Positions 2,471 through 53,384 of a stretch of 64,000 bases of DNA are shown in pieces; position 1 is the first letter of the stretch, and the number at the start of each line of letters is the position of its first letter. This DNA is from Armatimonadota bacterium. Its GTDB lineage: Bacteria; Sysuimicrobiota; Sysuimicrobiia; Sysuimicrobiales; Humicultoraceae. Location: contig JBBIOM010000007.1 in the NCBI GenBank assembly GCA_037443365.1, positions 1 through 64,000 of the forward strand, given 5' to 3'. The position numbers and the translations under genes are program-made. Below the pieces are notes generated by a model that did no database searches, was not told where the DNA came from, and saw only the letters and a list, made by a program, of their open reading frames with translations.

Positions 2471-3667
2471 GTGGACCCGCTGGGCGCGATGCCTGTGGCC
2501 TTGGCGCTCGGCGCCGCCGTCATCGAGGCCCGGCGCCACCGTCGGCATCTGGAGAGCATTCCCCACCGGATACACGTGAACGGCACGCGCGGTAAGTCGA
2601 GCGTCGTGCGCCTGGTCGTCGCTGGCCTGCGCTCTGGCGGGCTGCGGGTCGTCGGCAAGACCACGGGCTCCGCTCCCCGCATCCTGCTGCCCGACGGCTC
2701 AGAGGTCGACCTGCGCGGCAGCCGGCGACCCTCGCTGCACGAGTACCAGCAGGTGGCCGCGCTCGCCTCGCGCGCCCGAGCCGACGCGCTGGTGGTGGAG
2801 TGCATGGCGGTGCGCCCGGAGCTGCAGCGAGTCGCCGAGACGCACCTGATCCGCGCGACCGTCGGGGTGCTTACCGGAGCGGGCCTGGATCATGTCGGCG
2901 TCATGGGCGGCTCGCTGGGCGAGATCACGGAGGCGCTGGCAGCGACGATTCCCGCAAAGGGCGTGCTGGTGACGTCCGGCCCATCGCCGCCGCCTGTCTG
3001 GCTAGAGCGGGCCGTGGAGCGCGGGACTCGTGTGCGTACCGCGGTCGCTGATCCCGACATGCCGCTTCCCGCTGGCCACATTGAGTGGCCCGAGAACCAG
3101 GCAATCGCCCTGGAGGTATGCCAGGAGGTAGGCGTAGACCGCACCACCGCGCTGGCCGGCATGCTCCGGGTGGGGGGCGATCCAGGGGCGCTGCGCGTAT
3201 GGCGCCTGCACCGGTCCGGCCGCCCGGGTGCGCGATGCGACCCGGGAATATGGCTGGTCGGCGCCTTCGCCGCCAACGATCCGGCATCGACCAAGCGGCT
3301 GCTTGGGCTCGTGCGCCGGCAGTTCGGCCTGAGTGCGGTGCCGTTGAGCGGAATCCTGAACACCAGGTCCGATCGGGGCGAGCGCACCCTGCAGTGGTGC
3401 GATGCGCTGCTCTCGGGGGAGTTCCATGTCGACCGCCTGATCCTGACCGGTCCGCACGCCCGGGCAGCCGCAGGACTGCTGGACCGGCATGGGTGGGGGA
3501 AGGGGCGCGTGCGCGCACCTGCCAGGGGTTCCCCGGAAGAGGTGACCCGCGCCGCTATCGAGGGAACCGATGGACCCCTCCTGGTGGCCGGGATGGGAAA
3601 CGTCGCCGGGCTGGGATCGGCGCTCCTACGGTATTGGTCCGCGGTGGGCGCGGATGCGAGGGGGTGA
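2471..3667 (+). CDS. pgsB: poly-gamma-glutamate synthase PgsB/CapB
   Basis: RIHVNGTRGKSSVVRL, GKTTG, ECMAV, AFAANDP and NTRSDRGER motifs; alternative start ATG 2489. Confidence 0.92.
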   Translation: MDPLGAMPVALALGAAVIEARRHRRHLESIPHRIHVNGTRGKSSVVRLVVAGLRSGGLRVVGKTTGSAPRILLPDGSEVDLRGSRRPSLHEYQQVAALASRARADALVVECMAVRPELQRVAETHLIRATVGVLTGAGLDHVGVMGGSLGEITEALAATIPAKGVLVTSGPSPPPVWLERAVERGTRVRTAVADPDMPLPAGHIEWPENQAIALEVCQEVGVDRTTALAGMLRVGGDPGALRVWRLHRSGRPGARCDPGIWLVGAFAANDPASTKRLLGLVRRQFGLSAVPLSGILNTRSDRGERTLQWCDALLSGEFHVDRLILTGPHARAAAGLLDRHGWGKGRVRAPARGSPEEVTRAAIEGTDGPLLVAGMGNVAGLGSALLRYWSAVGADARG

Positions 3668-48509: not shown

Positions 48510-50141
<1,632 letters not shown>

Positions 50142-50165
50142 CTTGATCCTCCCAACGAAAGTGTG

Positions 50166-50192
50166 TTAGCACTCTCCACCGGAAAGTGCTAA
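50166..50192. promoter_or_regulatory. CIRCE element (HrcA operator)
   Basis: TTAGCACTC-N9-AAGTGCTAA, one mismatch from consensus, just upstream of the groEL RBS. Confidence 0.9.
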
Positions 50193-50352
50193 TCCAACTC
50201 CATATTGTTCAGGACCGGCAGCGTCAACGCAAGAATGGAGCCCGGGCCGTGCTGGTTGGTTTTCGGCCACTGGCTCGCAATATCTCAACGAAGTTCGCGA
50301 TTTCTCCGCCTTTCGCGCCTTTTCGCCGCCAGGGGCCGGCGTTGCCGCCGGC

Positions 50353-50361
50353 TGCTATACT
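50353..50361 (+). promoter_or_regulatory. extended -10 promoter of the DUF881 gene (probably leaderless)
   Basis: TGC-TATACT ending 6 nt before GTG 50368; no SD. Confidence 0.55.
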
Positions 50362-50367
50362 TAGGGC

Positions 50368-51108
50368 GTGTCGCGCGCTACCCGGCCTTTGCAGTCCGCC
50401 CGCTGGCTTCAGGGCGTAGTGGCGCTCTTCCTGCTGGCGGTCGGCTTCATGCTGGCGGCGCAGGTGCGGGCCCGGGAGCCCATTCGCCAGGCAGGAGCCC
50501 TGCCCTCATGGCGTCTCCCGGAGCTGGCCGTGCTCGTCCGGCAGCAGGAGGAGGCGCGGCGGCTGCTAGAGGCCGAGGTGGATGAACTCCGAAGGCGCTC
50601 ACGCGACTACGAGGCCGCGGTCATCGAAGGCCGGGGCCTCTCGCAGGCCATGGCCAGGGAGTTGACCCGCTACAGGCTTGCGCTGGGTCTGGTTCCGGTG
50701 GAAGGCCCTGGGGTCCGCGTGGTGGCCAGGGGTGGGGCTCCGGGGAAAGGCGGCATCGTGCCCGCGGGCGTCGAGGCGCAGGACCTGTCGGGCGTGGCAA
50801 ACGAGCTCTGGGCTGCGGGTGCCGAGGCCATGGCCATCAACGGCGTGCGCATCCTGGCCACCACAGGCATCCGGATGGATGAGGGCACCTTGCGCGTGGG
50901 TTCGGCGGCCGTCGCGCCTCCCTACACAATCGAAGCCATCGGTGATCCGGCCGCGCTGCAGGCAGCCTTGGCCATCCGCGGCGGGTTCGTGGAGGGACTG
51001 CGCTCGGTGGGGATTCACGTGACGGTCGCGGCCCAGGAGCGCCTGCGGATACCGGCCAGGGATGCCGTGGCGCCCCTGCGTCATGCCCGGCCCATGAGCG
51101 CCGACTGA
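50368..51108 (+). CDS. DUF881 family membrane-anchored coiled-coil protein
   Basis: GL.PVEGPGV.V, DL...NELWAAGAEAMAING.RI..T, PPY.IEAIGDP..L. Confidence 0.88.
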   Translation: MSRATRPLQSARWLQGVVALFLLAVGFMLAAQVRAREPIRQAGALPSWRLPELAVLVRQQEEARRLLEAEVDELRRRSRDYEAAVIEGRGLSQAMARELTRYRLALGLVPVEGPGVRVVARGGAPGKGGIVPAGVEAQDLSGVANELWAAGAEAMAINGVRILATTGIRMDEGTLRVGSAAVAPPYTIEAIGDPAALQAALAIRGGFVEGLRSVGIHVTVAAQERLRIPARDAVAPLRHARPMSAD

Positions 51109-51115
51109 TACCCCC

Positions 51116-51287
51116 AAACGGCGGCGCGGCCGCCGCCAGGTGAGCAGGGGGTTGCCCCTTCTCCTCCGGCCGGCACGGCCGCACCGTTGCCCCCGTCCTC
51201 AGAGATGCGGACCGCGCTTGGGTCAGGGGCGCTAGGCGCGTTCTTGATACGCCCCGGCCTTGCGATCCCTTCCTCTTTCGAGGCGGG
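51116..51287 (-). ncRNA. candidate orphan structured non-coding RNA (~170 nt)
   Basis: own TTGACG-17-TATAAT promoter, several stems including CCTC-GAAA-GAGG, terminator-like 7-bp hairpin at the end; no gene to lead. Confidence 0.55.
51120..51137. terminator. 7-bp GC hairpin ending the candidate RNA and/or the DUF881 mRNA
   Basis: GGCGGCG-CGGC-CGCCGCC; followed by GTTT on the minus strand. Confidence 0.5.
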
Positions 51288-51292
51288 GCCTC

Positions 51293-51321
51293 ATTATATG
51301 CATGCCCTCCCGGGCCGTCAA
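51293..51321 (-). promoter_or_regulatory. near-consensus sigma70 promoter with no downstream CDS
   Basis: TTGACG (51321-51316), 17-nt spacer, TATAAT (51298-51293). Confidence 0.8.
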
Positions 51322-52500
51322 TCAGTCTCGCCCGTGCCTCTCGACCGCCAGCGCCACCGCCTCACCGCCGGCCAGGCAGGCCGCGGCCACGCCGCGCCGG
51401 CCCTCGCGGGCGGGCATCGCATGCAGGAGCGTGGTCAGGATGCGCGCGCCGCTGGCGCCTATGGGGTGCCCCATTGCCACGGCTCCACCCCGGATGTTGA
51501 CGCGATCGGAGCCGATCCCGAGCTCCCGGCTTGCGGCGATCACCACCGCCGAGAACGCCTCGTTGATCTCGTAGAGGTCTACATCCTGTGCGGCCCATCC
51601 CGTCTTGGCAAGCAAGCGCCGGATCGCCTCGGCGGGCGCGATCGTGAACCACTCGGGCGCCATCGCCGCGGTGGCACCGCCGGCGATCCGGGCCAGCGGC
51701 GCCAGCCCCATGCGTCGGCTGGCCTCGCTCGAGGCCAGCACCACGGCCGCGGCGCCGTCGCTGATCGAACTCGCGTTGGCCGCGGTCACGGTGCCGTCTT
51801 CCTTGAAGGCGGGCTTCAACGCCGGTATCTTGGCGTAGTTCACTCGACGCGGCTCCTCGTCCTCGGTTACCACCGGGGCGCCGCCCCCGGGCTCGACCGG
51901 CAGAACCTCGGAGCCGAACTCGCCCGCGTCCATCGCGGCGATCGCCCGGCGGTAGCTCTGTGCGGCGAACGCGTCCTGCTCCTCCCTCGTGATCCCGCGT
52001 GTGCGGGCCAGCAGCTCGGCGCAGTTGCCCATGTGCCCGTGGCCGTAGGCGTCGTGCAGCCCGTCACGCAGGATGACGTCCACAAGAGCGCCGTCGCCGA
52101 GCCGGTACCCGGTGCGCGCCCGCTCGGCCAGATACGGGGCCGCGCTCATGTTCTCCATACCGCCGGCGACCACGACCTCGGCCTCCCCGGTCTGGATCGC
52201 CTGGCAGCCGAGCATCACGGCCTTGAGTCCCGACCCGCACATCTTGTTGACCAGCGTGGCCGGAACCGAGTCAGGCAAGCCGGCCGCCAGCGCTGCCTGG
52301 CGCGCCGGGGCCTGGCCCAGGCCCGCGCTCAGCACGTTGCCCATGATCACCTCGTCCACCGAGCCAGCCGGAACACCGGCGCGGCGCACGGCCTCGGCCA
52401 CCACGAGGCCGCCCAGCCTCGTGGCCGGGATCGCCGACAGGCCGCCCATGAACCGTCCGATCGGAGTCCGCACCGCGCTCAGGATCACCACTTCAGCCAT
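51322..52500 (-). CDS. acetyl-CoA C-acetyltransferase (thiolase)
   Basis: RTPIG, NKMCGSGL (Cys), NEAF, GHPIGASGARI, CLAGGEA; GGAGG RBS. Confidence 0.95.
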   Translation of the reverse strand: MAEVVILSAVRTPIGRFMGGLSAIPATRLGGLVVAEAVRRAGVPAGSVDEVIMGNVLSAGLGQAPARQAALAAGLPDSVPATLVNKMCGSGLKAVMLGCQAIQTGEAEVVVAGGMENMSAAPYLAERARTGYRLGDGALVDVILRDGLHDAYGHGHMGNCAELLARTRGITREEQDAFAAQSYRRAIAAMDAGEFGSEVLPVEPGGGAPVVTEDEEPRRVNYAKIPALKPAFKEDGTVTAANASSISDGAAAVVLASSEASRRMGLAPLARIAGGATAAMAPEWFTIAPAEAIRRLLAKTGWAAQDVDLYEINEAFSAVVIAASRELGIGSDRVNIRGGAVAMGHPIGASGARILTTLLHAMPAREGRRGVAAACLAGGEAVALAVERHGRD

Positions 52501-52567
52501 GCCGCACCTCCGCTCGATGTCCCCCACCCAGTCTACCGTGAGCACCGCGGCCCGCAAGGTGGGTTCT

Positions 52568-52597
52568 TTGACACCCCGTCTGGGGCTGATGTATAAT
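52568..52597 (+). promoter_or_regulatory. consensus sigma70 promoter of rpsU-yqeY
   Basis: TTGACA-18-TATAAT. Confidence 0.85.
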
Positions 52598-52730
52598 ACG
52601 CCCGTCACAAGACCTGCCACGGTCGTTGAGGCGGCGGTCGGAAGCGGCGGCCGCGTCGGTTCTGGAGGGCAGGTTCCTCAAGCGCAGGGTGGAGGAGCCT
52701 GCTTCCTGTCTGTCTGAGGGGTGATGCGCG

Positions 52731-52907
52731 ATGGCGGAGATACGCGTGGGCAAGGACGAGAGCCTGGATGCCGCGCTGCGTCGTTTCAAGCGGCAGGTGA
52801 AGCGGTCCGGGATCCTCACCGACGCCAAGCGTCACGAGCACTACGAGACCCCGGCCCAGAAGCGGCGCCGCAAGATCGCGCGCAGCGCGAAGCGGCGGCG
52901 CCGATAG
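52731..52907 (+). CDS. rpsU: 30S ribosomal protein bS21 (58 aa, absent from the ORF track)
   Basis: MAEIRVGKDESLDAALRRFKRQVKRSGILTDAKRHEHYETPAQKRRRKIARSAKRRRR; upstream of yqeY. Confidence 0.95.
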   Translation: MAEIRVGKDESLDAALRRFKRQVKRSGILTDAKRHEHYETPAQKRRRKIARSAKRRRR

Positions 52908-52925: not shown

Positions 52926-53384
52926 ATGGAGGCGCCGGGGGCGATTCAGCACCGCCTGGAGGAGGATCTGAAGGCGGCGCTGCGCGCCAGGGACACGCTG
53001 CGCACCTCCACGATCCGCCTGGCGCGGGCCGCCCTCAAGAACGCCGAGATCGAGCGCCGTCGGCCCCTCAATGAGGCCGAGGTAATCGAGGTCCTCCGGC
53101 GCGAGGTGCGACGCCGGCGCGAGGCGATCGAGGCCTTCACGAGGGGCGGGCGCGACGACCTCGTCGAGAAGGAGCAGCTGGAGATGGCCGTCCTGCTGGG
53201 GTACCTGCCGGCGCAGCTCGAGGAAGCCGAGATCCACCGGATCGTGGCCGAAGTGGTCGCGGAGGTGGGCGCGACCGGCGGCGGGGAGTTCGGGCGCGTT
53301 ATGGGTCCGGTGATGCGCCGCGTTGCCGGGCGGGCAGATGGCAGGACCGTGGAGCGCATCGTACGCGAGGCGTTGGGGTGCTAG
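52926..53384 (+). CDS. GatB/YqeY domain protein
   Basis: DLKAALRARD, RREAIEAF..GGR.DL.EKE, YLPAQL, GRVMG...GRADG. Confidence 0.92.
   Translation: MEAPGAIQHRLEEDLKAALRARDTLRTSTIRLARAALKNAEIERRRPLNEAEVIEVLRREVRRRREAIEAFTRGGRDDLVEKEQLEMAVLLGYLPAQLEEAEIHRIVAEVVAEVGATGGGEFGRVMGPVMRRVAGRADGRTVERIVREALGC

Follow-up and report, generated by a model that had tools for sequence, protein, structure and literature searches.

A conserved stand-alone structured RNA of Sysuimicrobiota that appears to be a new RNA family

Orphan structured RNAs turn up regularly, and the raiA motif RNA and OLE RNA are lineage-restricted examples found by comparative genomics. The RNA described here resembles both in its strong covariation, its restriction to certain taxa, the lack of a consistent downstream gene, and a function that is obscure at discovery. 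It differs from them in having no Rfam match, in being smaller than OLE, and in occurring, among the genomes searched, in CSP1-3/Sysuimicrobiota only. It is also like 6S RNA (RF00013) in that both are stand-alone, highly structured RNAs of about 170 to 185 nt with a strong promoter, usually present in a single copy and presumed to bind protein. However, 6S RNA forms one rod with paired ends and a central bubble, whereas the present RNA consists of two side-by-side hairpin domains. A further hallmark of 6S RNA is its binding to RNA polymerase holoenzyme, for which it is a template for product RNA. Some bacteria carry two 6S RNAs, a precedent to which we return below. The signal recognition particle (SRP) RNA (RF00169, RF01854) has a conserved apical domain IV, whereas the present RNA is most variable at the apex of its 3′ rod. 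With the c-di-GMP-I riboswitch (RF01051) it shares hairpin domains in GC-rich intergenic DNA and a GAAA loop, the latter solely in the copy of the window (the whole 64-kb stretch of DNA analyzed); unlike that riboswitch, it gives no match to the model, its GNRA loop is not conserved, no consistent gene follows it, and few of its unpaired bases are conserved. Finally, the 3′ rod, followed in most copies by a U-rich tract, is reminiscent of an intrinsic terminator, but in contrast to plain terminators it has a stem of about 25 bp, a middle part conserved in sequence across the phylum, and conserved internal loops. What appears to be new is the family itself, which belongs to an uncultured phylum and is strongly supported by comparison among genomes.

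CSP1-3/Sysuimicrobiota has been described as a prevalent, never cultivated phylum, among whose members Fervidifonticultor is counted, in a study that also reports one metatranscriptome of an enrichment (PMC11604079). In the window, a thiolase gene and a DUF881 gene converge on a 213-bp gap (51109-51321), in agreement with a preliminary description of this locus. The stop codon of the thiolase gene directly adjoins the −35 box of a predicted minus-strand promoter, TTGACG-17-TATAAT (51321..51293), which matches 11 of 12 consensus positions in a promoter scan. It had been noted earlier that the window has no more than two TATAAT hexamers, one of them in this promoter, and a count of the hexamers bears this out. 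Each of the two hexamers has TTGAC 17 to 18 nt upstream, and properly spaced pairs of TTGAC and TATAAT did not occur in any of 100 shuffles of the window; between 46 and 56 kb, the scan returned 4 promoter-like sites, against 0.5 expected. The RNA predicted downstream of the promoter (Table 1) is present once in its 2.2-Mb assembly. Among listed sequencing runs, the stretch or part of it is contained in four DNA runs, all of one study, and in no RNA run.

Table 1. Features of the RNA locus and RNA genes elsewhere in the same genome (positions refer to the window unless a contig is named)
Feature	Position	Strand	Description
Predicted RNA, ~171 nt	51116..51286	minus	5′ end inferred 7 nt after −10 box; 3′ end inferred at U run
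Covariance-model match	51112-51291		153.8 bits (R1), 117.6 bits (R2)
−35 hexamer TTGACG	51316..51321	minus	promoter scan
−10 hexamer TATAAT	51293..51298	minus	one of two TATAAT in window
5′ domain	51191..51287	minus	long irregular hairpin (RNAalifold on MAFFT alignment); P1 CCCGYCU/GGRCGGG, P2 GAGR/YCUC, inner CYGC/GCRG, GGYC/GRCC, variable apical stem
Unpaired CAAG	51217..51220	minus	internal loop of 5′ domain
CAAGAA	51241-51246		apical loop of 5′ domain; contains second AAG
3′ domain	51123..51185	minus	long rod hairpin, ~25 bp, 11-bp base; asymmetric GNCN/G loop, GCCNR/YNGGC helix, purine-rich loop with one conserved A per strand
U run GUUU	51116..51118	minus	4 nt after rod; 8 nt before opposite-strand DUF881 stop codon
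DUF881 gene	50368-51108	plus	Pfam PF05949, 129.5 bits; convergent neighbor of RNA
Thiolase gene	51322-52620	minus	Pfam Thiolase_N + Thiolase_C; upstream neighbor of RNA
groEL	48510..50141	minus	same strand as RNA; Pfam Cpn60, 272.6 bits
CIRCE operator of groEL	50166-50192		1 mismatch
Second TATAAT promoter	52568-52597	plus	~125 nt before rpsU
rpsU (S21)	52731-52907	plus	
YqeY gene	52926-53384	plus	follows rpsU
6S RNA of the genome	contig C4, 3474-3655		74.6 bits, canonical
SRP RNA of the genome	contig C16, 46632-46897		176.1 bits
RNase P RNA of the genome	contig C19		264.9 bits
tmRNA of the genome	contig C47		148.3 bits

Among 60 relatives searched by BLASTN, 18 other genomes, belonging to 6 genera, contain near-full-length matches with 66 to 85% identity. 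A covariance model (R1) made from a MAFFT alignment of 19 copies found the RNA in 65 of 94 phylum genomes, and a model (R2) made from 44 diverse copies found it in 72 of the 94; E-values of these covariance models are rough. All R2 matches in the phylum are full-length, and there is mostly one per genome, with two copies in five genomes (G053, G064, G077, G078, and G080). Leaving aside the window's own genome (G000), the RNA is present in 30 of 33 genomes of family f1, 20 of 22 of f2, 20 of 23 of f4, and the one genome of f7, and it was found neither in the 12 genomes of f5 (completeness, 72% to 100%) nor in the single genomes of f3 and f6. The model also gave two weak matches in f5, of 14.5 and 13.9 bits, which are in fact genes for tRNA-Lys and tRNA-Leu. 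The phylum is small, as the same 94 genomes stand under “class” and under “phylum.” Two unpublished genomes, G024 and G015, are both among the 72 with the RNA; the G024 copy is part of alignments A1 and A2 and, through them, of model R1, and alignments A3 and A5 include neither genome.

Beyond the phylum, the R2 search gave no RNA in a sample of 151 genomes from the phylum of a Clostridia metagenome-assembled genome and no match in five single genomes. A sample of 151 genomes from the phylum of a Planomonospora, on the Actinomycetota side, gave one weak match (28.4 bits), which was discarded for its missing helices and many nonstandard pairs. Pattern scans also retrieved copies: among the matches listed, 5 of 80 from a degenerate pattern scan of genome contigs and 9 of 80 from a tighter scan of metagenome contigs are real by the model, the latter giving no further hint at function. 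As far as searched, the RNA is confined to CSP1-3/Sysuimicrobiota.

The fold is one of two separate, covarying hairpin domains. RNAalifold on a structure-blind MAFFT alignment of 19 copies predicts 44 consensus pairs, 14 of them with compensatory changes. The covariation test on related genomes proposed in the preliminary description was extended to 63 copies, in an alignment fitted to model R2 and thus favoring structure, although its helices were first predicted on the structure-blind alignment: 94.6% of cells form standard pairs (79.8% in shuffles), 34 of the 44 pairs show compensatory changes, both sides have changed in 428 cells, and none of 500 shuffles matched any measure of pairing or covariation. 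Sliding the partners by 1 to 3 columns lowers pairing to 37 to 52%; the 44-copy set gave the same picture. The top mutual-information pairs are the RNAalifold helices, an apical stem, and one extra P2 pair, the highest lying in the 3′ domain; neither a pseudoknot nor pairing between the domains was seen in the mutual information.

Helices 1 to 6, in the 5′ domain, are 89 to 100% paired over the 63 copies, with compensatory changes at 21 of 25 pairs, and helices 7 and 8, in the 3′ rod, are 98.8% and 95.4% paired, with compensatory changes at 13 of 19. In the rod, the basal pairs covary freely and the apex is of variable length; the middle is almost invariant (CGG-YYGYG-NCN-GCC ... GGCGGCRG-CCG). 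Several helices are conserved in sequence; unpaired bases conserved phylum-wide are few and short, namely, the CAAG of the internal loop (A, A, and G each at least 97% conserved in 44 copies) and the AAG in the apical loop of the 5′ domain, which is variable apart from it. Family f1 conserves a 15-nt apical loop, CAAGAACGCGCCGCA, with a sequence that is not retained in f2 or f4.

The preliminary description had proposed five helices from the single sequence. The structure-blind alignment of 19 members upholds the apical hairpin GAG-A-AGGGG-CAAC-CCCCU-G-CUC, which is 83% paired with five compensatory pairs. By contrast, the GCCCCG/CGGGGC helix (71% of cells paired), the long inter-domain stem GCGCGG..CAUC/GGUGCGG..GUGC (72%), and the terminal 7-bp hairpin (71%) find no support in the same alignment, and their bases pair otherwise in helices supported by covariation. 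The CCUC-GAAA-GAGG hairpin takes a middle position: it is compatible with the 63 copies (94% paired; shuffles, 92.7%) but has no compensatory pair. Its loop is GAAA in the window's copy and GAAC, GCAC, AAAC, GAC, or GAU in others. It is in competition with P1 and P2 and could be a folding intermediate.

The strand of the RNA follows from U-G and G-U pairs that are conserved among the 63 copies (59 of 63 at one pair), since the opposite strand would have A-C mismatches in their place; the earlier assignment to the minus strand is borne out in this way. Single-sequence folding does not pick the strand and proves little alone, since both strands fold better than shuffles (z = −2.87 for the minus strand and −2.57 for the plus strand). 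We ruled out a small open reading frame in the gap: the 63 copies show no 3-nt periodicity, their lengths spread over all classes modulo 3, and a complete reading frame of at least 10 amino acids is absent from 44 of them.

At the 3′ end, the U run noted earlier is present, but in the window it is only 3 long and stands 4 nt from the stem, and a consensus terminator scan made no call. Among the 63 copies, the T run after the rod measures at least 3 in 52 and at least 4 in 36. At the 5′ end, TTGAC occupies the −35 position in 53 of the 63 copies, 47 have 9 or more of the 12 consensus positions at a constant distance, and in most copies a TAnnnT −10 box, often preceded by TGn, ends 7 nt before the first position of the model. 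The predicted promoter thus has what is expected of the sigma-70 type, with hexamers 16 to 18 nt apart and a conserved position. The gene upstream differs by genus (thiolase, glycoside hydrolase, aconitase, peroxiredoxin, or transporter), and thiolase is found there in only 16 of 58 loci. As judged from sequence comparison, our data show the RNA to be a transcription unit of its own with a positionally conserved, putative sigma-70-type promoter. The conservation of promoter, fold, and U-rich 3′ end across the phylum supports the proposal of a stand-alone structured RNA gene, and we consider it highly probable that the gene is real.

A search of Rfam 15 (4,227 families) with the window and homologous loci (15 loci, the window's own among them) returned no match to the RNA at the gathering thresholds or at an E value of ≤10. 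This outcome of the Rfam search suggested earlier supports the idea of a possible new class; the RNA appears, from its sequence and predicted fold, to be a new family of a familiar kind, the stand-alone bacterial structured RNA. The preliminary description also found the size suggestive of 6S RNA. That suggestion is not supported: RF00013 (threshold, 46.4 bits) gives no match, the genome has a canonical 6S RNA elsewhere, and the RNA has two hairpin domains and not a rod, with no pairing of its 5′ and 3′ ends in the mutual information. It was right in stating that hallmarks of SRP RNA, RNase P RNA, and tmRNA are absent, as none of these models matches and the genome's own copies lie elsewhere (Table 1). 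Paralogy with the genome's own 6S RNA and SRP RNA was rejected, the local alignment scores being reached by 159 and 13 of 200 shuffles, respectively. With regard to RNA-binding proteins, G000 (97.7% complete) has no match to CsrA (PF02599) or Ro/TROVE (PF05731), the partners of CsrB-type and Y-RNA-type RNAs, and a borderline match to Hfq (26.8 bits). A full-text literature search found nothing relevant on this RNA or on the RNA biology of the phylum.

The RNA has a partly conserved neighborhood. In 41 of 44 loci its neighbor is DUF881. The two genes converge in 33 of these, in arrangements that range from overlap to a distance of 172 nt (mostly under 90 nt); in the other 8, which all belong to f2, DUF881 precedes the RNA on the same strand. 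Of 58 loci, 49 encode a GroEL homologue no more than 2.5 kb away, with the gene downstream on the RNA strand in 37 and upstream and divergent in 12; the other nine comprise four second copies of the RNA and five loci with short flanks. The link to DUF881 and groEL is not obligatory, because the RNA occurs without DUF881 and f5 keeps the gene pair without the RNA. Thirteen genomes of four genera have the RNA without any DUF881 match (RNA versus DUF881: g15, 6/7 versus 0/7; g25, 3/3 versus 0/3; g22, 3/3 versus 0/3; g20, 1/1 versus 0/1). In f5, DUF881 is present in 12 of 12 genomes and the DUF881-groEL pair is kept in the 5 examined, yet the RNA was found in none of the 12, and at the syntenic site the model finds nothing even with its filters off. 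In three of these five f5 genomes (L218, L222, and L223), tRNA-Lys(CUU) and tRNA-Leu(UAG) fill the site after the DUF881 stop codon. We read the linkage to DUF881 and groEL as inherited synteny. The role of an antisense regulator of DUF881, which had been raised for the RNA, is not supported as its core role in view of the 13 genomes without DUF881, the reverse situation in f5, and the nonconvergent arrangement in f2.

The window's groEL is a solitary gene that has no groES immediately before it (gap, 50142-50367). It has a promoter-like site of its own upstream, and the CIRCE inverted repeat upstream of it implies control by HrcA. HrcA control of the RNA was rejected, since the only CIRCE of the window is that of groEL and the HAIR motif is at chance level. 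In f2, the RNA lies between an upstream gene for a trypsin-like protein and a codirectional DUF5666-CsoR-CopA operon that begins 45 to 69 nt downstream; in loci L195, L201, L172, and L200, a DUF5666 protein, a CsoR-type repressor, and a copper P-type ATPase are encoded after the RNA on the same strand, and the same four loci have a conserved ATAGAC shortly before the −35 box. In L172, a SAM-IV riboswitch match at 2569-2673 (minus strand), near the copper ATPase gene, scores 31.6 bits, below the gathering score of 38 bits (E = 0.11). Second copies of the RNA in genus g26 (L203 to L206) have another upstream sequence, with TAGCGA instead of TTGACA, and in those of L203 and L204 both the CAAG bulge and the apical loop are missing. 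The L203 copy and an Hsp20 gene are oriented divergently; in L205 and L206 the neighbor of the copy is a gene for a carbon-nitrogen hydrolase. The copy next to Hsp20 is a weak hint at a stress or proteostasis neighborhood.

The reading that we favor, with somewhat more confidence than doubt, is that of a previously undescribed structured noncoding RNA, about 170 nt long, that works in trans through the binding of protein. Transcription of such an RNA would be strong, starting at about position 51286 and ending at the RNA's own 3′ rod, and the product, stable and probably abundant, would act in trans. One or more proteins would dock at its helices of conserved sequence and at its small loops rich in purines (CAAG, AAG, GNCN/G, and A opposite A), and the RNA would be a component of a ribonucleoprotein or a protein decoy, not an antisense RNA, an mRNA leader, or a metabolite sensor. 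The features conserved phylum-wide are helices and purine bulges with no long single strand, which argues against seed pairing; the absence of a rich set of conserved junction bases argues against an aptamer, that of a constant downstream gene against a leader, and the occurrence without DUF881 against an antisense role. We also count the 3′ rod, with its nearly invariant middle and its apex of variable length, and the lack of a pseudoknot signal in the mutual information toward protein binding.

The same observations bear on what else the RNA might be. A trans-acting sRNA whose conserved loop pairs with mRNAs and controls their translation or decay, possibly with Hfq, would fit a gene that stands by itself and has a hairpin and a U tail at its end, the 15-nt f1 loop could be its pairing seed, and the borderline Hfq-like match could be its partner; this is nevertheless unlikely, because a conserved single strand of at least about 6 nt, as in seed-type sRNAs, is not found phylum-wide, the only conserved unpaired bases being CAAG and AAG, the sequence of the f1 loop is absent from f2 and f4, and nearly all of the molecule is in covarying helices, which is unusual for such sRNAs. 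We give still less credence to a cis element, be it an antisense or 3′-end module for DUF881 or a riboswitch-like leader or attenuator for groEL or the copper operon. The distance of 8 nt between the 3′ end of the RNA and the DUF881 stop codon, the frequent adjacency of DUF881 and GroEL, the position of groEL directly downstream (about 170 to 210 nt) in 4 loci, the copper operon in f2, and the weak terminator in the window's genome are all in its favor. Against it stand the four genera with the RNA and no DUF881 match, the f5 genomes with the gene pair and no RNA, the flip of orientation to both DUF881 and groEL in f2, the promoter and CIRCE operator of groEL itself, and the small number of conserved unpaired bases, which makes the RNA a poor aptamer candidate.

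It is very improbable that the RNA is a second, divergent 6S-like RNA that binds RNA polymerase. The size of about 170 nt and the strong promoter would suit it, but there is no RF00013 match at an E value of ≤10, the 74.6-bit 6S RNA of the genome lies on another contig, covariation gives two hairpins with neither a closing stem of the 5′ and 3′ ends nor a central bubble, and the alignment to the genome's 6S RNA is no better than those of shuffles. A nonfunctional GC-rich spacer with a chance fold beside a fortuitous promoter can practically be dismissed. GC-rich DNA folds readily, and both strands of the gap do fold better than shuffles; such a spacer is contradicted by the 66 to 85% identity across three families in noncoding DNA, by compensatory changes at 34 of 44 pairs that none of 500 shuffles equaled, and by the positionally conserved promoter. 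Protein binding in trans as the main role would leave room for local effects in cis in some lineages, which are possible given groEL near the RNA in 49 of 58 loci and the copper operon of f2; in the window's genome, the weak terminator means that read-through antisense to DUF881 and into groEL is possible.

A single-copy, strongly promoted, covarying RNA in about three-quarters of the genomes of a phylum has the signature of an important cellular RNA. We tentatively put forward, as a conjecture that may well prove wrong, that it is a fifth housekeeping-grade RNA of Sysuimicrobiota, a subunit or decoy of a conserved protein, placed beside the chaperonin gene for protein-quality or stress control; one extra copy lies by Hsp20, and the f2 copies lie by a trypsin-like protease and a copper-stress operon. 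If this is true, it would constitute a new ribonucleoprotein system and not a variant of 6S, SRP, CsrB, or Y RNA. The absence of the RNA from the whole of f5 offers a natural comparison set for phylogenetic profiling of its partner, and the covariance model is a well-supported annotation aid for Sysuimicrobiota genomes.

The only other comparable promoter of the window drives a ribosomal protein gene, rpsU (S21), followed by the YqeY gene. It is a perfect TTGACA-18-TATAAT, and the untranslated leader of about 125 nt that follows (region 52568-52730, plus strand) matches no Rfam family and could be a candidate S21 autoregulatory element. The longest reading frame of the thiolase gene starts with a GTG at 52620, inside this rpsU promoter. 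Because the Pfam domain begins at residue 44 and an ATG stands at residue 42, the true thiolase start is probably near 52497 (region 52497-52620, minus strand).
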